DNA of 39,133 nt from Escherichia phage vB_EcoP-22664BS1, in the sequence record MZ234009.1; one strand, written 5' to 3'. The notes below the pieces were generated by a model that worked only from the letters and a program-made list of their open reading frames with translations, did not search any database and was not told where the DNA came from. Position numbers and translations under genes: made by a program. Below are positions 6,160 to 35,678 of this stretch, piece by piece (the first letter of the stretch is position 1; the number at the start of each line of letters is the position of its first letter).

Positions 6160-6205
6160 TTAGACTCAAGGTCATTACTGTGTGTAGTGGCCTTTATGGT
6201 TAACA
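6160..6205 (+). promoter_or_regulatory. Conserved hairpin element (RNase III processing-site-like, R18.5 position)
   Basis: agactcaaggtc...gtggcctttatgg motif shared with elements at 15301 and 22521 and with recalled T7 RNase III sites. Confidence 0.45.
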
Positions 6206-8476: not shown

Positions 8477-8513
8477 TAACTATAGGTGAAAGCTGCATGA
8501 ATAAGCAGGTAGT
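8477..8513 (+). other. Perfect 10-bp inverted repeat (aactataggt / acctatagtt) forming a potential hairpin just downstream of gene 19
   Basis: Read directly from sequence; no downstream U-tract. Confidence 0.4.
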
Positions 8514-8561
8514 AACCTATAGTTACTACCAGTCTAACATACTGTTTTACAAGGAGTTTGG

Positions 8562-8584
8562 ACTTAACTATCACTATAGGGAAG
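8562..8584 (+). promoter_or_regulatory. Phage RNAP promoter near right genome end (phiOR-like)
   Basis: acttaactatcactatagggaag matches promoter family. Confidence 0.65.
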
Positions 8585-8923: not shown

Positions 8924-9085
8924 CGCAATCATGGTAACGATTCATGAGCGGAAGACCTAAGGTCAGTACGTGGATAAAGACTCACTATACTGACCTTAGC
9001 TACTGTAGTCAAGGACTTTAGGTAACACCTTAAGAGAAGCTCACTTAGGGTCATCCTACTTATTGGTCTATCCTAGTGTCGCCTG

Positions 9086-10164: not shown

Positions 10165-10173
10165 GAGTGATTA

Positions 10174-10219
10174 ACTACAGGTCGTTAGACTGATAGCGGC
10201 CTGACTGATAGTCACTAAC
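10174..10219 (+). promoter_or_regulatory. Early-region conserved element, copy 2
   Basis: actacaggtcgttagactgatagcggcctgactgatagtcactaac. Confidence 0.35.
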
Positions 10220-10900: not shown

Positions 10901-10903
10901 CAG

Positions 10904-10947
10904 ACTACAGGTCATCAATGCTGGTGGCCTGACTGATAGTCATTAAC
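10904..10947 (+). promoter_or_regulatory. Early-region conserved element, copy 3
   Basis: actacaggtcatcaatgctggtggcctgactgatagtcattaac. Confidence 0.35.
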
Positions 10948-11191: not shown

Positions 11192-11323
11192 CCTAAATAA
11201 ACAGGAGAGAACCAAATCATAGCTTGACCATAACACTGACGTGATGGTACTGAGTGATAGACGAGAGGTCATCGACTGATAGGTGGCCTCAAAGATTACC
11301 ACTTACATTGATAGGAGTTAACT

Positions 11324-12051: not shown

Positions 12052-14733
12052 ATGAGCGTCATCTCTATTGACAAGCACGACTTCTCTGATGTGTCGAACG
12101 CCATTGAGCCGTTTAACCTACTGGCTGACCACTACGGGCAAGACCTTGCAGTCAAACAGCTTCAGCTTGAGCACGAGGCATACACTGAAGGCGAGCGACG
12201 TTTCATCAAGAACCTTGAGCGCCAGACCGAGCGCGGGGAACTGGCAGACAATCAGGTAGCCAAGCCTCTTATGCAGACTCTTGTTCCTAAGATTGTGCAA
12301 GCCGTCAAGGAGTGGCACGAAGGTCCAGACGGGAAGCTGTCAACCTCTCGTCCGAGCGTAGCGTTCACCATGTTGAGCACTGAAGAGAAGGCCGTAAAGG
12401 ACCGCTCTTTGCGCATCTCCTGCGAATCTGCTGCGGTTATCATACTGAAGGTCATACTCTCCAAGCTGATCAAGCCTGAAGGGATACCGATTACACCGAT
12501 GGCATCCGCGATAGGGCGCACACTTGAGGACGAAATCCGCTTCGGTCGCATCCGTGACAAGGAGAAAGAGCACTTCAAGAAGGCGATAGCTGATAACCTG
12601 AATAAGCGGGCCGGGGCGTCCTACAAGAAAGCCTACATGCAAGCGGTCGAGGCATCCATGCTGGAGCAAGGCCAACTGGAAGATGCGTGGGGGACTTGGA
12701 GTCCTACAGAGGCTGTCCACGTTGGCGTCAAGATGCTTGAGATTGTCATCCAGTCAACACAACTGGTAGAGCTTAAGCGGTACGGTGCTGGCAATGCAGC
12801 GGCTGACGTTGAGATGGTCCACCTGTCAGACTTCTGGGTCAAGAAGATGGCACAACGAGGATTCAGCCTTGCGGGTATCGCTCCAGTCTACCAGCCTTGC
12901 GTCGTTCCACCTAAGCCGTGGACCGGTGTCGTAGGAGGTGGGTACTGGGCCAAAGGACGCAGACCACTGCCACTGATTCGCTTAGGGTCTAAGTCTGCGG
13001 TGGCACGTTACGAAGACGTGTACATGCCTGAAGTCTATGACGCTGTGAATATCATCCAGAATACACCTTGGAAAGTGAACAAGAAGGTTCTGGACGTGGT
13101 GAACATGGTCGAGAAGCTGAACAACACGCCTATTGATGACATCCCTCAGATGGAACCGCTGAAGCCTGAGGACTATGCGGGTGAGACTGAAGAAGAACTC
13201 AAGGCATGGAAGAAGGCTGCTGCTGGTATCTATCGCCGCGAGAAGGCCAGACAGTCACGAAGATTGTCACTGAGCTTTATCGTCAACCAAGCGAACAAGT
13301 TCTCTCAGTTCAAGGCCATCTGGTTCCCGTATAACATGGACTGGCGTGGGCGCGTCTACGCTGTTCCGATGTTCAACCCTCAGGGTAACGACATGCAGAA
13401 GGGTCTTCTGACTCTGGCAGTCGGTAAGCCTATTGGTGCTGATGGTTTCAAATGGCTGAAGGTCCACGGTGCAAACTGCGCGGGTGTCGATAAAGTCACC
13501 TTCGAGGAGCGTATCAAGTGGGTGGAAGATAACCACGACAACATCATGGCTGCTGCTAAGGCGCCGATGGATAGTATTGAGTGGTGGGGCAAGTTAGACT
13601 CTCCGTTCTGCTTCCTAGCGTTCTGCTTCGAGTATGCTGGCGTAATGCACCACGGCTTGTCTTACTCCTGCTCGCTGCCGATAGCGTTCGATGGGTCCTG
13701 CTCTGGGATTCAGCACTTCAGCGCTATGCTTCGCGACCACATCGGTGGACATGCAGTAAACCTGACGCCATCCGGTAAGGTCCAAGACATCTACCGAATC
13801 GTGTCTGACCGCATTGAGGAGGAGCTTAAAGTCCTACTGGTTAACGGTACGGACAACGAGATGGTAACTCACGAGGACAAGAAAACTGGTGAGATTACCG
13901 AGCGTCTCAAGCTGGGGACACGAGAGCTTGCCAGTCAGTGGCTTACCTACGGTATGTCACGAAAGGTCACTAAGCGTTCGGTCATGACTCTGGCCTACGG
14001 GTCGAAAGAGTACGGCTTCGCAGACCAAGTTTACGAGGACATCGTGATGCCAGCGATTGACTCAGGGTCTGGCGCTATGTTCACTGAACCAAGCCAAGCA
14101 TCTCGCTTCATGGCTAAGATGATTTGGGAAGCTGTGAGTGTGACCGTAGTTGCTGCGGTTGACGCGATGAAATGGCTTCAGGGTGCTGCCAAGCTGCTTG
14201 CTGCTGAAGTGAAGGACAAGAAGACTGGAGAAATCCTGAAGCCTTGTCTTCCGGTACACTGGGTCACACCTGATGGTTTCCCTGTCTGGCAGGAATACCG
14301 CAAGAAGGACACCACTCGTCTGAACCTGATGTTCTTAGGGTCATTCAACCTTCAGCCTACCGTCAACAAAGGCACGAAGAAAGAGCTGGACAAGCACAAG
14401 CAGGAGTCAGGCATTAGCCCGAACTTCGTCCACTCACAAGATGGTAGCCACCTCCGCAAGACTGTAGTCCACACGCATCGCAAGTACGGCGTGATGTCAT
14501 TCGCAGTGATTCACGATAGCTTCGGGACCATCCCGGCTGACGCTGAGTATCTGTTCCGTGGAGTCCGTGAGACGATGGTCGAGACCTACCGCGACAACGA
14601 TGTGCTGCTTGACTTCTACGAGCAGTTTGAATACCAGCTTCACGAGAGCCAGAGAGACAAGTTGCCTGAGCTTCCGAAGAAAGGTAAACTGAATATCGAA
14701 GACATCTTGTCTTCAGACTTTGCATTCGCTTAA
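12052..14733 (+). CDS. 1: Single-subunit DNA-directed RNA polymerase (gp1)
   Basis: Extensive colinear identity to T7 RNAP (FNLLADHYG, PCVVPPKPWTG, WFPYNMDWRGRVYAV, DGSCSGIQHFSAML, HDSFGT, C-terminal DFAFA). Confidence 0.97.
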   Translation: MSVISIDKHDFSDVSNAIEPFNLLADHYGQDLAVKQLQLEHEAYTEGERRFIKNLERQTERGELADNQVAKPLMQTLVPKIVQAVKEWHEGPDGKLSTSRPSVAFTMLSTEEKAVKDRSLRISCESAAVIILKVILSKLIKPEGIPITPMASAIGRTLEDEIRFGRIRDKEKEHFKKAIADNLNKRAGASYKKAYMQAVEASMLEQGQLEDAWGTWSPTEAVHVGVKMLEIVIQSTQLVELKRYGAGNAAADVEMVHLSDFWVKKMAQRGFSLAGIAPVYQPCVVPPKPWTGVVGGGYWAKGRRPLPLIRLGSKSAVARYEDVYMPEVYDAVNIIQNTPWKVNKKVLDVVNMVEKLNNTPIDDIPQMEPLKPEDYAGETEEELKAWKKAAAGIYRREKARQSRRLSLSFIVNQANKFSQFKAIWFPYNMDWRGRVYAVPMFNPQGNDMQKGLLTLAVGKPIGADGFKWLKVHGANCAGVDKVTFEERIKWVEDNHDNIMAAAKAPMDSIEWWGKLDSPFCFLAFCFEYAGVMHHGLSYSCSLPIAFDGSCSGIQHFSAMLRDHIGGHAVNLTPSGKVQDIYRIVSDRIEEELKVLLVNGTDNEMVTHEDKKTGEITERLKLGTRELASQWLTYGMSRKVTKRSVMTLAYGSKEYGFADQVYEDIVMPAIDSGSGAMFTEPSQASRFMAKMIWEAVSVTVVAAVDAMKWLQGAAKLLAAEVKDKKTGEILKPCLPVHWVTPDGFPVWQEYRKKDTTRLNLMFLGSFNLQPTVNKGTKKELDKHKQESGISPNFVHSQDGSHLRKTVVHTHRKYGVMSFAVIHDSFGTIPADAEYLFRGVRETMVETYRDNDVLLDFYEQFEYQLHESQRDKLPELPKKGKLNIEDILSSDFAFA

Positions 14734-15280: not shown

Positions 15281-15303
15281 CCTAAACTATCACTATAGGC
15301 TTA
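15281..15303 (+). promoter_or_regulatory. Phage RNAP promoter (phi1.1-like)
   Basis: cctaaactatcactataggc. Confidence 0.65.
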
Positions 15304-15345
15304 GACTCAAGGTCATGACTCAAAGTCGTGGCCTTCATGATTAAC
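15301..15345 (+). promoter_or_regulatory. Conserved hairpin element (RNase III-like, R1.1 position)
   Basis: ttagactcaaggtcatgactcaaagtcgtggccttcatgatta. Confidence 0.45.
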
Positions 15346-15376
15346 CCTAAATAAACACTACTGGAGATTTAACCGT

Positions 15377-20453: not shown

Positions 20454-20471
20454 ACTATCACCTTAGGGATG
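20449..20471 (+). promoter_or_regulatory. Degenerate phage promoter-like sequence (caccttaggga; mismatches at -4/-3)
   Basis: ctaaactatcaccttagggatga. Confidence 0.35.
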
Positions 20472-20516: not shown

Positions 20517-20595
20517 GTCTCCATAGCTCAAACGGTAGAGCGGCGGGTCGTGATGGCCTATTGCGATTAGGGTTCGAATCCCCGTGGAGACGCCA
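20517..20595 (+). tRNA. tRNA-like element (canonical acceptor stem, D-arm, T-loop and encoded CCA; irregular anticodon arm; isotype unresolved, possibly anticodon CGU)
   Basis: gtctcca/tggagac 7-bp acceptor stem, gctc-aaacggta-gagc D-arm, ggttcgaatcc T-loop, 3' gcca; the anticodon arm only pairs with a G-G mismatch and the variable region is 9 nt. Confidence 0.4.
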
Positions 20596-22520: not shown

Positions 22521-22566
22521 TCTAGACTCAAGGTCATTCATAGCGAGTGGCCTTTATGATTAGACT
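22521..22566 (+). promoter_or_regulatory. Conserved hairpin element (RNase III-like, R4.7 position)
   Basis: tctagactcaaggtcattcatagcgagtggcctttatgatta closely resembles a recalled T7 RNase III site. Confidence 0.5.
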
Positions 22567-22583
22567 AAAGCGGAGGATTAACC

Positions 22584-25558: not shown

Positions 25559-26421
25559 GCGAAAAGAAAATAGCTCTGGTGCTAGACGGTGACTACTTAG
25601 TGTTCTCTTCTATGGCTGCTGCCGAGGACGAGACAGACTGGGGTGATGGCATCTGGACCCTTATCTGCGACCATGAGAAGGCTCGTCGTATCCTTGAGAA
25701 CACCATCGCTGAAATCGTTAAGAAGCGTAAGGCGTGGAAAGACGCTAAGATTGTGATGTGCTTTACTGACGATAACAACTGGCGTAAGGACGTGCTACCT
25801 ACCTATAAGGCCAATCGTAAAGGTTCCCGCAAGCCTGTAGGTTACAAGAAGTTCGTAGCCGAAGTGATGGCTGACCCACGGTTCAACAGCTTCCTGCGTC
25901 CTACGCTTGAGGGCGATGACTGTATGGGTATCATCGGGACCAGACCTCAGATTGTTGGATGTGACCATGCGGTTCTGGTGTCCTGTGATAAGGACTTCAA
26001 GACCATCCCGAACTGTGAGTTCTTCTGGTTAACCACTGGTGAAATTCTGAGTCATACGACTGCTGAGGCAGACTACTGGCACATGGAGCAGACCATCAAG
26101 GGTGACACTACAGATGGCTACGGCGGGATTCCGGGGATGGGTGAGGACACCACTCGTGCGTTCCTTGACGAGCCGTACTACTTCGTGCAGGAGAGCCGTG
26201 AGCTTAAGACTGGAAAGAACAAAGGCCAGATTAAGACTGAGTGGAAGAAGTATCCTAAGCGTGAAGACATGACGCTGTGGGACTGCATGGTGACTCTGGC
26301 TGCTAAAGCTGGGATGACCGAGGAGGAACTTCTGGTCCAAGCTCAGGTAGCTCGTATTTGCCGAGCCTCCGACTACGACCCTAAGTCCAAGGAGGTCATC
26401 CTATGGACACCATCCATGTAA
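25555..26421 (+). CDS. 6: 5'-3' exonuclease (gp6), probable GTG start
   Basis: Colinear with T7 gp6 (LDGDYLVF, PTYKANRK...KPVGY, SCDKDFKTIPNCEF, KGDTTDGYGGIPG, KAGMTEE); RBS ggagga before GTG. Confidence 0.9.
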   Translation: MSEKKIALVLDGDYLVFSSMAAAEDETDWGDGIWTLICDHEKARRILENTIAEIVKKRKAWKDAKIVMCFTDDNNWRKDVLPTYKANRKGSRKPVGYKKFVAEVMADPRFNSFLRPTLEGDDCMGIIGTRPQIVGCDHAVLVSCDKDFKTIPNCEFFWLTTGEILSHTTAEADYWHMEQTIKGDTTDGYGGIPGMGEDTTRAFLDEPYYFVQESRELKTGKNKGQIKTEWKKYPKREDMTLWDCMVTLAAKAGMTEEELLVQAQVARICRASDYDPKSKEVILWTPSM

Positions 26422-26495: not shown

Positions 26496-26547
26496 GTCTA
26501 ACCGATAGTCATATACTATCAATCCAACAGTCATCCATAGGTGAAAC

Positions 26548-26570
26548 ACTAAACTATCACTATAGGGACT
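26548..26570 (+). promoter_or_regulatory. Phage RNAP promoter (phi6.5-like)
   Basis: ctaaactatcactatagggact. Confidence 0.7.
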
Positions 26571-26631
26571 TTAGGACCTAAGATATGACTATAAGATAGA
26601 CTTTAGTCTTAACTTAAAGAGGAGATTCAAG

Positions 26632-27147: not shown

Positions 27148-27570
27148 ATGCTACCATATCTCAACTCACGCGAAGGTCGCCACATGTGCGCTTGTCGCCT
27201 CTGGGAAGACGGGCAGTCTAACTTCAAGTCATTCGAGGACTTCAAGGCTCATACTTACCGTATGGCTGACGAGTTCGATGGTGAAGAGTACACAATCTAC
27301 GATGTCTCAGGTCAACCAGTAGCGTATCTCTACATGCTGGCTACCGCATCTTGGCACCGACCGACTCCAGGTCTTGACCTTTCAATCGTTGCTATTCGTC
27401 GTGACTCGCAGTCCTCCCGCAAGGTTCTTGAGACGGTCAGACACATCATAGACGAAGAGTGCAAGCGTTGGGGTCTTGGCTGGTATTCTCGTATCAAGCA
27501 TGTTTCCGGGTCGGTAGACATCGTAACAACCAAGTGCGTTAGCACGAACAAGGAGATTAACCGTGGGTAA
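27148..27570 (+). CDS. gp7-like protein (by synteny)
   Basis: ORF track; position between 6.7 and 7.3. Confidence 0.5.
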   Translation: MLPYLNSREGRHMCACRLWEDGQSNFKSFEDFKAHTYRMADEFDGEEYTIYDVSGQPVAYLYMLATASWHRPTPGLDLSIVAIRRDSQSSRKVLETVRHIIDEECKRWGLGWYSRIKHVSGSVDIVTTKCVSTNKEINRG

Positions 27571-31811: not shown

Positions 31812-31814
31812 TTG

Positions 31815-31858
31815 AAACCCCTTGGGTGCCTTCGGGTGCTTGAGGGGTTTTTTTTCTT
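31815..31858 (+). terminator. Intrinsic terminator (T-phi-like) after the capsid gene
   Basis: aaccccttgggtgccttcgggtgcttgaggggtttttttt: GC-rich hairpin plus T8 tract, resembling T7 T-phi. Confidence 0.75.
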
Positions 31859-32773: not shown

Positions 32774-35131
32774 ATGCCATTAATTACGCAAAGCATAAAA
32801 AATCTTAAAGGTGGTATTAGCCAACAGCCTGACATCCTGAGGTTCTCAGACCAAGGCGAGGCTCAAGTTAACTGCTGGTCATCCGAGAGTGATGGCCTCC
32901 AGAAGCGTCCACCTACAGTCTTCAAGCGACGTCTTAACATCGACGTTGGGAGCAACCCTAAGTTCCACCTGATTAACCGTGATGAGCAGGAGCAGTATTA
33001 CATCGTGTTCAACGGGTCCAACATTCAGGTAGTCGACTTGAGCGGTAATCAGTACTCAGTTTCAGGTGCGGTAGACTACGTTAAGTCGTCCAACCCGCGA
33101 GATGACATCCGTGTCGTTACAGTTGCAGACTATACGTTCGTCGTTAACCGTAAGGTTGTCGTTAAAGGTGGAAGCGATAAGTCACACTCTGGTTATAATC
33201 GTAAAGCACGCGCTTTAATTAACCTGCGTGGTGGACAGTATGGTCGCACCCTTAAGGTAGGAATCAACGGAGGCGTTAAGGTTTCGCATAAGTTGCCAGC
33301 AGGTAATGATGCCGAGAATGACCCTCCTAAGGTTGATGCTCAGGCTATCGGTGCAGCTCTGAGAGACCTTCTTGTTGCTGCTTACCCTACCTTCACGTTC
33401 GACCTTGGGTCTGGATTCCTGTTAATCACTGCCCCTTCAGGGACTGACATTAACTCAGTGGAGACGGAGGATGGCTACGCTAACCAGCTAATCAGCCCAG
33501 TACTCGACACGGTGCAAACAATCTCTAAGCTGCCTCTTGCAGCTCCAAATGGGTACATCATTAAGATTCAAGGTGAGACCAACAGTAGCGCCGATGAGTA
33601 TTACGTGATGTATGACTCCAACACTAAGACGTGGAAGGAGACAGTAGAGCCGGGAGTGGTCACTGGGTTCGATAACACCACAATGCCACATGCTCTGGTT
33701 AGACAATCTGACGGCTCCTTTGAGTTCAAGACTCTGGACTGGTCTAAGCGGGGTGCTGGTAATGATGACACAAACCCTATGCCTAGCTTCGTGGATGCTA
33801 CGATTAACGATGTGTTCTTCTACAGGAACAGGCTAGGGTTCTTGTCAGGAGAGAACGTAATCATGAGCCGTTCAGCCAGCTACTTTGCGTTCTTCCCTAA
33901 GAGTGTGGCGACATTGAGTGATGATGACCCTATTGACGTAGCTGTAAGTCACCCTAGAATCTCAATACTTAAGTATGCCGTTCCGTTTAGCGAGCAGCTA
34001 CTACTTTGGTCAGATGAGGTGCAGTTCGTGATGACAAGCTCGGGGGTCCTTACCTCGAAGTCTATCCAGCTTGATGTAGGCTCAGAGTTTGCCTTAGGAG
34101 ATAACGCCAGACCGTTCGCTGTAGGACGCTCAGTCTTCTTCTCAGCGCCTCGTGGGTCATTCACCAGTATTAAGCGATACTTCGCTGTAGCAGATGTGTC
34201 TGACGTGAAGGATGCCGATGATACCACTGGTCACGTACTGTCCTATATCCCTAACGGGGTGTTTGACATTCAAGGTACAGGGACTGAGAACTACATCTGC
34301 GTCAACTCCACAGGTGCATACAACCGAATCTACATCTACAAGTTCTTGTTTAAGGACGGCGTACAACTTCAAGCCTCTTGGTCGCACTGGGAGTTCCCTA
34401 AAGCTGATAAGATTCTGGCGTCTGCGTCGATTGGCTCTACCATGTTCATTGTTCGTCAGCACCAAGGGGGTGTGGACATTGAGCACCTTAAGTTCATCAA
34501 GGAGGCAACCGACTTTCCATTAGAGCCGTATAGACTCCACGTTGACTCTAAGGTGTCTATGGTAATCCCAATTGGCTCATATAACGCTGACACCTATGAG
34601 ACTACGGTCGACATTGGTTCTGCTTATGGTGGAAACGCTCCGTCTCCCGGTCGGTACTATCTGATTGACAGTCAGGGTGCCTATGTGGACCTTGGTGAAC
34701 TGACCAGCATCTCAACTGTGGCTATACTCAATGGCGATTGGTCGGGACGTACAGTGTTCATCGGACGGTCTTATCTGATGTCCTACAAGTTCTCACGGTT
34801 CCTGATTAAGATTGAAGACGATAGTGGCACTCAGTCTGAAGACACTGGACGTCTACAGCTTCGTAGGGCTTGGGTCAACTACAAGGACACCGGCGCTCTT
34901 AGACTCATTGTCAGAAACGGTGAGCGGGAGTTCGTGAACACCTTTAATGGGTACACCCTTGGTCAGCAACCCATCGGGACTACCAACATTGGGGACGGTC
35001 AGTATCGCTTCGCTATGAATGGTAACGCATTAACCACGAGTCTAACCTTAGAGTCAGACTATCCTACCCCAGTGTCCATCGTTGGGTGTGGCTGGGAGGC
35101 GTCATACGCTAAGAAAGCTCGTTCCGTCTAA
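32774..35131 (+). CDS. 12: Tail tubular protein B (gp12)
   Basis: Colinear with T7 gp12 (SQSIKNLKGGISQQPDILR, FFYRNRLGFLSGEN, DDDPIDVAVS, RRAWVNY, GCGWE). Confidence 0.95.
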   Translation: MPLITQSIKNLKGGISQQPDILRFSDQGEAQVNCWSSESDGLQKRPPTVFKRRLNIDVGSNPKFHLINRDEQEQYYIVFNGSNIQVVDLSGNQYSVSGAVDYVKSSNPRDDIRVVTVADYTFVVNRKVVVKGGSDKSHSGYNRKARALINLRGGQYGRTLKVGINGGVKVSHKLPAGNDAENDPPKVDAQAIGAALRDLLVAAYPTFTFDLGSGFLLITAPSGTDINSVETEDGYANQLISPVLDTVQTISKLPLAAPNGYIIKIQGETNSSADEYYVMYDSNTKTWKETVEPGVVTGFDNTTMPHALVRQSDGSFEFKTLDWSKRGAGNDDTNPMPSFVDATINDVFFYRNRLGFLSGENVIMSRSASYFAFFPKSVATLSDDDPIDVAVSHPRISILKYAVPFSEQLLLWSDEVQFVMTSSGVLTSKSIQLDVGSEFALGDNARPFAVGRSVFFSAPRGSFTSIKRYFAVADVSDVKDADDTTGHVLSYIPNGVFDIQGTGTENYICVNSTGAYNRIYIYKFLFKDGVQLQASWSHWEFPKADKILASASIGSTMFIVRQHQGGVDIEHLKFIKEATDFPLEPYRLHVDSKVSMVIPIGSYNADTYETTVDIGSAYGGNAPSPGRYYLIDSQGAYVDLGELTSISTVAILNGDWSGRTVFIGRSYLMSYKFSRFLIKIEDDSGTQSEDTGRLQLRRAWVNYKDTGALRLIVRNGEREFVNTFNGYTLGQQPIGTTNIGDGQYRFAMNGNALTTSLTLESDYPTPVSIVGCGWEASYAKKARSV

Positions 35132-35155
35132 CTTATTGAAGGGCCTATAGATTTA

Positions 35156-35178
35156 CCTTAACTATCACTATAGGGACT
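35156..35178 (+). promoter_or_regulatory. Phage RNAP promoter (phi13-like), embedded between the arms of a 12-bp inverted repeat (35139..35150 / 35177..35188)
   Basis: ccttaactatcactatagggact; flanking aagggcctatag / ctataggccctt. Confidence 0.65.
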
Positions 35179-35207
35179 ATAGGCCCTTAAGGTTATAAGG
35201 AGACTTT

Positions 35208-35678
35208 ATGTATATTCGCAAGGCTACGGAACAGGATGTCCACTACTTTCTGTGGCATCTTTCAGCAGATGATGTTAATGAGTGCAAAGCAAACTACGGG
35301 TCAACCGTGGGTCTCTCAGAGAGACTGCTTAAGCATCTATCTCCGTCATCTGTGGTTTTAACGAACGGTGTAGGTGAAGTGTTTGCCTATGGTGGAAACC
35401 AAGGGGATAACGTATGGTTCTTGACTTCGGGTCTGGTCCACAAGCTGAGACCTAAAGAGAAGCGAGAGTTCATAAAGCGTATCTCTGAGTACAGGGACTT
35501 AATGTTAGACCAATACGGGACCATCTGGAACTACGTGTGGTCAGGCAATAAGTCTCACATTAAATTCTTGAAGTTGCTTGGGGCTAAGTTCCATGATGAT
35601 TGGACTATCAGCCCGGTAACTGGTGAGCATTTTCAATTATTCACTATCTCTAAGGAGGACGTATGTGTGAACCCGTAA
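35208..35678 (+). CDS. gp13-like internal virion / assembly protein (by synteny)
   Basis: ORF track; position between genes 12 and 14; RBS aaggaga. Confidence 0.55.
   Translation: MYIRKATEQDVHYFLWHLSADDVNECKANYGSTVGLSERLLKHLSPSSVVLTNGVGEVFAYGGNQGDNVWFLTSGLVHKLRPKEKREFIKRISEYRDLMLDQYGTIWNYVWSGNKSHIKFLKLLGAKFHDDWTISPVTGEHFQLFTISKEDVCVNP

Follow-up and report, generated by a model that had tools for sequence, protein, structure and literature searches.

When a phage promoter is found nested between the arms of a perfect inverted repeat, a simple question has to be asked: in which molecule, if in any, do the two arms meet? Such an arrangement is present in the genome sequence of Escherichia phage vB_EcoP-22664BS1 (MZ234009.1), the whole stretch of which, 39,133 nucleotides, is referred to here as the window. 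It occupies the spacer between gene 12, which encodes tail tubular protein B (32774-35131, with the stop codon TAA at 35129-35131), and gene 13, which encodes an internal virion protein (35208-35678, with the start codon ATG at 35208-35210); the ribosome-binding site of gene 13, UAAGGAG (35196-35202, + strand), lies directly 3' of the hairpin discussed below, before the ATG. An earlier note on this locus had left several possibilities side by side, namely, a hairpin at the transcript start, a cruciform in the DNA, modulation of the promoter, termination of upstream transcripts, and their processing. Here we argue for the last of these options, which is favoured by a T7-like position, by the fold and by conservation, cleavage itself being a prediction.

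The window represents a Kayfunavirus, that is, a K1F-like phage of the T7 group. Over a 1.2-kb stretch around the site, the window shows 99.8% identity to Escherichia phage LM33_P1, and the gene 12-13 spacer of the type phage K1F is identical to that of the window; the K1F record has no regulatory feature annotated at this spacer. In comparison with the LM33_P1 record, the window shows a circular permutation of about 9.4 kb (gene 13 is found at 35208 in the window and at 25824 in LM33_P1), so that the genome ends are located inside the window, near 8-9.4 kb. A close relative (L126, MZ234024) carries, at positions 1164-1565 of the respective locus, an additional endonuclease VII gene that is absent from the window; a link of the repeat to a homing endonuclease was considered and rejected, the insertion in MZ234024 being located between genes 13 and 14, away from the repeat.

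The repeat is real and non-random. As the earlier note had described it, the arms AAGGGCCTATAG (35139-35150) and CTATAGGCCCTT (35177-35188), each of 12 nucleotides, are returned by a repeat finder as 100% complementary, with 26 nucleotides between them (local sequence: ...TCTAACTTATTGAAGGGCCTATAGATTTACCTTAACTATCACTATAGGGACTATAGGCCCTTAAGGTTATAAGGAGACTTTATG...). The window contains two perfect 12-bp inverted repeats with loops of up to 60 nt, as compared to 0.11 expected from 100 first-order Markov simulations; when only the upstream sequence is shuffled and the promoter is kept fixed, an uninterrupted promoter-enclosing helix of at least 12 bp emerges in 1% of 300 shuffles. The enclosed promoter core, TCACTATAGGGA at 35165-35176, is one of some ten + strand copies of a CT[AT]AACTATCACTATAGG-type promoter in the window, all of them intergenic, and matches the other nine (..TTAACTATCACTATAGGGA). 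The name phi13 is correct because the promoter is located between gene 12 and gene 13. By the T7 convention, this promoter of the phage RNA polymerase extends from -17 to +6 (35156-35178, + strand), so that it lies within the 26-nt loop save for its last 2 nt, which belong to the 3' arm. With the transcription start predicted, by analogy with T7, at G35173, the 5' arm of the upper stem (AAGGGCCUAUAG, 35139-35150, + strand) covers positions -34 to -23, outside the promoter, and the 3' arm (CUAUAGGCCCUU, 35177-35188, + strand) corresponds to positions +5 to +16 of the phi13 transcript.

Part of the symmetry is built of promoter sequence. A CTATAG palindrome within the promoter core accounts for 6 of the 12 arm positions, and ACTATAGG is found twice in tandem with a 9-nt period, at 35167-35174 and 35176-35183; judging from this pattern, the present 3' arm may have arisen when the initiation region underwent a small tandem duplication. 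Both features speak for a reading in which the symmetry is a functionless by-product of promoter duplication combined with an upstream CCTATAG, kept only because the spacer is conserved as a whole. We consider this reading improbable, since the GGCC part of the arms is not derived from the promoter and yet is invariant on both sides; further points on this reading are given below, together with the data on conservation.

The only other perfect 12-bp inverted repeat of the window is found in the early region (8957-8968, CTAAGGTCAGTA, and 8988-8999, TACTGACCTTAG, + strand, with a 19-nt loop). A sequence present in its loop and 3' arm, GACTCACTATA, is more like the core of the T7 promoter than like the phage's own promoter; the model of canonical RNase III sites described below does not detect this repeat. 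In addition, an 11-bp perfect inverted repeat (8477-8487, TAACTATAGGT, and 8515-8525, ACCTATAGTTA, + strand) is located just upstream of the promoter at 8571, and its 8515-8525 arm is also able to pair with the core of that promoter (CCTATAGT with ACTATAGG). The earlier statement that no other promoter copy is flanked in such a way holds inasmuch as, among the ten copies, compact arms are found only at phi13; it does not hold for phi6.5. This promoter (core 26557-26568) sits in a nest of its own (26505-26592, + strand), with perfect 10-bp arms ATAGTCATAT (26505-26514) and ATATGACTAT (26583-26592) separated by 68 nt. The phi6.5 arms are unchanged in 15 relatives, and the position of this nest is that of the R6.5/phi6.5 nest in T7.

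Which RNA, then, could carry both arms? With +1 at G35173, transcripts initiated at phi13 contain the 3' arm only, and the phi13-initiated RNA shows no notable structure (z = -0.10). A hairpin in the promoter's own transcript, proposed previously for the transcript start region, was rejected on these grounds. Upstream of the site, a Tphi-like terminator follows the capsid gene (31814-31851, + strand; a 17-pair stem, then a T-run), and no promoter copies were found between this terminator and position 35165. Because of the terminator upstream and the lack of an intervening promoter copy, genes 11 and 12 must be transcribed by read-through, as in T7. Since read-through is the only source of gene 11-12 RNA, only such RNA carries both arms and crosses the repeat.

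Folding, which had been proposed as a check, yields a minimum-energy RNA structure of -27.8 kcal/mol (z = -2.9). It consists of a 5-bp lower stem, in which UAACU (35129-35133, + strand, including the gene 12 stop codon TAA) pairs with GGUUA (35191-35195, + strand; AGUUA in most relatives), an asymmetric internal loop with 5 nt on the 5' side (UAUUG, 35134-35138, + strand, unpaired in the predicted folds) and 2 nt on the 3' side, the 12-bp upper stem, and the promoter sequence in the terminal loop. In a 451-nt context, the pair probabilities in the upper stem are 0.99-1.0 for the ten inner pairs and 0.63 and 0.86 for the two outermost A-U pairs; those in the lower stem are 0.83-0.91. On a larger scale, GTTCCGT at the end of gene 12 (35121-35127) is complementary over 7 bp to ACGGAAC inside gene 13 (35226-35232), and in a 121-nt fold this long-range pairing closes a larger domain that contains the hairpin together with the gene 13 ribosome-binding site and start codon.

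A stable and conserved helix in the read-through RNA could, of course, play a structural role only, without being cut by RNase III, for instance, by blocking 3' exonucleases once the RNA has been cleaved at another site, or by making access to the gene 13 ribosome-binding site differ between read-through and phi13 RNA. The latter role would be in line with the minimum-energy fold, where part of the gene 13 ribosome-binding site, GGAG (35199-35202), is paired with UUCC (35122-35125). We deem the uncut hairpin unlikely, considering the comparison with T7 and the features of the stem base that are discussed below.

Termination is a very improbable role for the hairpin. Its stability and its location where gene 12 ends would speak for a site at which upstream transcripts terminate or the polymerase pauses; the stem, however, is followed by a tail without a U-run (UUAAGGUUAUAAGG; UUAAGGUUAU), and its loop is as large as 26 nt. 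Besides, a terminator scan omits this hairpin and yet detects the Tphi-like site at 31814-31851, and the class II signal ATCTGTT is not found nearby, its nearest + strand copies being at 14549 and 20812.

The perfect arms are equally complementary in DNA, and this complementarity, together with the DNA fold (-11.8 kcal/mol, z = -3.1), speaks for an element acting at the DNA level, be it a cruciform or the binding site of a dimeric protein that modulates the activity of phi13. Nevertheless, an element of this kind is very unlikely. Extrusion of a cruciform would be costly with a 26-bp spacer, and the lower stem relies, in the window, in one relative and in the T7 equivalent, on G-U pairs, which work only in the + strand RNA; on account of the spacer and of these pairs the cruciform was rejected as the main reading, even though a DNA fold is possible. 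Modulation of promoter activity by the arms is likewise unsupported: in other lineages, the 5' arm changes along with the sequence of the promoter, as would be expected from base pairing and not from a protein site. A DNA-level promoter regulator of this type is not known in T7-group phages.

The evolutionary record of the pairing can be followed at two levels. Within the genus, 18 distinct Kayfunavirus sequences were compared. The 9-bp core of the helix, GGCCTATAG/CTATAGGCC (GGCCUAUAG/CUAUAGGCC), whose 5'-arm part corresponds to 35142-35150, is invariant except for one A-to-G change that keeps a G-U pair, and the 3' arm (35177-35188) is invariant altogether. The lower stem is paired in 98.9% of the alignment cells, with a U-A/U-G change at one pair. 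Hence the changes in the maintained pairs are confined to A-U to G-U and U-A to U-G, and no compensatory double changes are seen among the 18 sequences, which is why covariation within the genus is uninformative. The arms are kept even where the loop contains a different promoter specificity region (loci L019, L022 and L025), and the 5' arm, although located outside the -17 to +6 segment, is more conserved than the promoter specificity region. The pair 35141-35186 is G-C in 6 of the 18 sequences and a U-C mismatch in the remaining 12; in the majority type, pairs between UUGAA and UUUAA, as seen in the alignment, lengthen the helix past this mismatch. Since the G-C pair is found in 6 sequences out of 18, the perfect 12 bp represent the state of one subclade, the conserved entity being a helix of about 15 positions.

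For the origin of the symmetry as a by-product, the fact that the outer three pairs are not maintained in most relatives is a favourable circumstance, and so is the lack of compensatory change within the genus. The 5' arm, however, should not then be conserved above the promoter specificity region while lying outside the promoter, and a complementary upstream arm should not be kept, as it is, in all lineages with unrelated promoter sequences.

The latter observation comes from the level of the subfamily. For Studiervirinae, 80 loci were fetched from viral contigs via the C-terminus of gene 12, and the gene 12-13 spacers were read. Minimum-energy folds were examined for 18 spacers, namely, those of the window, T7 and 16 representative loci, and each of the 18 contains a helix of 8-18 bp that overlaps the promoter. 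In these folded spacers the 5' arm varies with the promoter type (T3-, K11-, T7-like and others). Specifically, the 5' and 3' arms are GUCUCCCUGUGGUG and CACUAAAGGGAGAC with the T3-like promoter type, and UCCUUAUGGUGUGCUC and GGGCACACUAUAGGGA with the K11-like one; in individual loci they are AGGUUGGGUUAGUAGUG and CACUAUUAGCCCAACUU (L100), GCCUCUUUCAAUA and UAUUGAGAGGGGC (L095), GUCCCCUAUGGU and ACUAUAGGGGAC (L048), and ACCCUAUG and CAUAGGGU (L070), the last two forming an 8-bp outer segment of a predicted stem that continues inward to the promoter start. By a crude score of uninterrupted helices, which misses interrupted ones such as those of the T3 type, the helix is longer than with shuffled upstream sequence (p <=0.02) in 38 of the 73 distinct spacers scored; these 38 belong to Kayfunavirus, to the K11-like type and to several other promoter types, and include T7. 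Thus, across the subfamily the structure is kept while the sequence changes, whereas within the genus one finds invariance and two G-U changes only. It is mainly this covariation across lineages that points to base pairing as the property under selection.

In a few T7-group lineages (viral contigs L058, L080 and L096), gene 12 is followed not by gene 13 but by a small ORF, the product of which begins with MRIVVIEANIAAGKST (P-loop-like). There the hairpin is found inside the promoter's own transcript, downstream of the promoter, and does not enclose it.

In T7, the spacer between gene 12 and gene 13 contains a named RNase III cleavage site, R13, and R6.5 is likewise listed as an RNase III site (PMC6938266). 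The T7 record places phi13 at 27274, between the same two genes; the GenBank/RefSeq feature tables of T7, as returned, include phi13 and contain no RNase III features. When the T7 spacer is folded, the upstream UUCUCCCUGUGGUGG pairs with the phi13 core UCACUAUAGGGAGAA, yielding a helix of 15 bp with 4 G-U pairs (z = -3.9). R13 was reportedly described by Dunn and Studier, in 1983, as overlapping the promoter phi13. As anchors for the folds of ten T7 R sites, we used cleavage coordinates that we take to be those of Dunn and Studier (1983). With these assumed coordinates, the cuts fall, in all ten sites, at the first to third nucleotide 3' of an upper stem of 9-15 bp, namely, at the third in the canonical sites and at the first in R13; it is this agreement with a strong stem, in 10 of 10 cases, that supports the coordinates. 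Stems that open with AAGG and close with CCUU, or with a one-base variant of these, are found in 9 of the 10 T7 sites, R13 being the exception.

The hairpin of the window shares with R13 the intergenic position between genes 12 and 13, the overlap with a late promoter, the presence of both arms in read-through RNA only, and an expected cut a few nucleotides downstream of the promoter start. It differs from R13 in its geometry: it is the promoter core (-8 to +7 by the annotated start 27274) that serves as the 3' arm in T7, whereas in the window the 3' arm covers +5 to +16 and the whole promoter is inside the loop; the T7 stem contains 4 G-U pairs; the arm sequences are unrelated; and the AAGG/CCUU stem base, lacking in T7 R13, is present in the window hairpin. 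In its layout, the hairpin is akin to R6.5. The complete phi6.5 promoter of T7 is found between the R6.5 arms AAGGUCCCUA and UAGGGGCCUU, in a loop of 33 nt, as compared to 26 nt in the window, the base of the stem is AAGG...CCUU in both cases, and the T7 cut, by the assumed coordinate, is at +19 of the promoter start, to be compared with +17 to +20 predicted in the window. Unlike the window hairpin, R6.5 is located at gene 6.5 and not at gene 13, and it matches the canonical consensus weakly (18.7 bits), whereas the hairpin under study goes unmatched; the window's own phi6.5 arms are different again, with 10 bp and a 68-nt spacer. Thus, the closest layout to that of the window hairpin is the layout of R6.5, while its position is that of R13.

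The canonical T7 sites (R0.3, R0.5, R1, R1.1, R1.3, R4.7 and R18.5) are similar to the hairpin in being intercistronic, in their architecture (a lower stem, an internal loop and an upper stem of about 10-12 bp) and in the proximal box of G-C, A-U and A-U. They are dissimilar in having a loop of 3-5 nt and the consensus CUCAAGGUC...GUGGCCUUUAUGAUU, neither of which is found in the window hairpin. At the promoter-overlapping sites of T7, processing by RNase III has been known since 1983; for its growth, T7 can dispense with the enzyme. Because the promoter-overlapping RNase III design is known from T7, the hairpin at phi13 should be considered ordinary rather than surprising.

Does the hairpin conform to the rules of substrate recognition by RNase III? 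The target of the E. coli enzyme has been described as an 11-bp helix with a distal box (U-A, U-G) and a proximal box (Pertzev and Nicholson, PMC1540722). In the proximal box, position 1 is G-C, position 2 is A-U or U-A, position 3 is A-U, and position 4 is other than G-C; the natural T7 site R1.1 has U-C at the latter position (PMC1540722). At the stem base of the window hairpin, the corresponding positions are G35141-C35186, A35140-U35187 and A35139-U35188, followed by G35138, which stands unpaired opposite A35189; in 12 of the 18 Kayfunavirus sequences, position 1 of the box is the U-C mismatch noted above. In the natural transcript context, the upper stem is predicted to comprise 12 bp, to be compared with the 11 bp or so required above the target site, and the predicted fold places an internal loop and a lower stem beneath it. 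The hairpin is intercistronic and overlaps the promoter, its arms being at -34 to -23 and +5 to +16 of phi13. At the distal box, A-U/U-A pairs are found instead of the preferred U-A/U-G; the region is AU-rich, and its register is uncertain because the upper stem ends not in a tetraloop but in a loop of 26 nt.

The non-canonical distal box and the large loop could be taken to mean that the hairpin is not cut, and so could the failure of the covariance model of canonical sites to recognize it. This model, built from seven T7 RNase III sites, leaves the phi13 hairpin unmatched at E up to 10, while scoring six other sites in the window at 28-43 bits. In control searches, however, T7 R6.5 and R3.8 score 18.7 and 12.5 bits, respectively, and T7 R13 is left unmatched; since R13 is missed as well, the model is insensitive to the promoter-overlapping subtype and cannot decide on membership in it. 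Against an uncut hairpin stand the fit of the proximal box to the stem base, the internal loop and lower stem, which copy the shape of the cleaved T7 sites, and the fact that the nearest analogues in position and layout, T7 R13 and R6.5, are listed RNase III sites. The phi13 hairpin is, accordingly, outside the canonical sequence family, and its assignment is by position, layout and structure.

The six canonical T7-type RNase III hairpins of the window (6161-6205, 10171-10214, 10901-10942, 11258-11301, 15302-15346 and 22523-22567, + strand) conform to [ACG]AGGTC...GGCCT[TGC]. Those at 6161 and 22523 are in the positions of T7 R18.5 and R4.7, respectively, the one at 15302 follows a promoter, as R1.1 does in T7, and the three others are in the early region; none of the six is annotated in LM33_P1 or K1F. 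Rfam has no match at 35050-35300 with E up to 10, and in the whole window, at the gathering threshold, it yields a tRNA only. This tRNA gene (20517-20595, + strand; 36.7 bits with Rfam; tRNA-Thr with the anticodon CGT according to ARAGORN) lies between a promoter-like site at 20458 and the primase gene (20610) and is found in 33 phage records, in some of which it is annotated as a tRNA. In the literature that we searched, there were no RNase III cleavage data for this phage or genus and no paper on RNase III sites in K1F-like phages.

Taken together, these data make it probable that the repeat encodes the Kayfunavirus counterpart of the T7 RNase III signal R13, in the nested-promoter layout of T7 R6.5/phi6.5. 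The sequence of events can be envisaged as follows. Polymerases that have started at phi9 and phi10 and passed the Tphi-like terminator would transcribe genes 11 and 12 and cross the phi13 region. The resulting read-through RNAs, the sole carriers of both arms, would fold into the UAACU/GGUUA stem, the internal loop, the 12-bp stem and the promoter loop. Host RNase III would then cleave this structure at one place only, in the 3' strand of the internal loop directly beneath the upper stem, in a zone predicted at about 35189-35192 (+ strand), that is, at +17 to +20 of phi13. Internal loops are known to limit RNase III to one strand, leaving a 3' hairpin that stabilises the upstream RNA (PMC3867540). 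By the same token, the phi13 hairpin would stay at the 3' end of the gene 11-12 mRNA and protect it, and the RNA from gene 13 onward would gain a 5' end some 17-20 nt downstream of the phi13 start. With such a 5' end, the processed and the promoter-initiated gene 13 mRNAs would have nearly the same leader. The RNAs started at phi13, being devoid of the 5' arm, would not be substrates. We infer the cleavage, the precise place where it occurs and what it does to stability and translation from the likeness to the T7 sites and from the predicted fold.

How the present layout arose is a separate matter. In Studiervirinae, the hairpin and phi13 might share nucleotides as a rule, with Kayfunavirus having escaped from this constraint when a 9-nt duplication (ACTATAGG-G-ACTATAGG, 35167-35183) shifted the 3' arm away from the promoter core; we put this forward as a tentative idea that may well turn out to be wrong. 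If it is true, RNA structure constrains the evolution of promoter specificity, since the 5' arm must follow each change in the promoter, whereas in Kayfunavirus the same arms can host different promoter types in the loop, as in L019, L022 and L025.

K1F-like phages serve in phage therapy and engineering, and synthetic biology makes use of the K1F polymerase-promoter pair. The hairpin adds to these phages a regulatory element that has so far been left unannotated, and refactoring of the gene 12-13 junction, or lifting phi13 together with the sequence on either side, would either disrupt a putative RNA-processing signal or bring it along. For the T7 group as a whole, the comparison shows the hairpin overlapping phi13 to be a general feature and not a quirk of T7.
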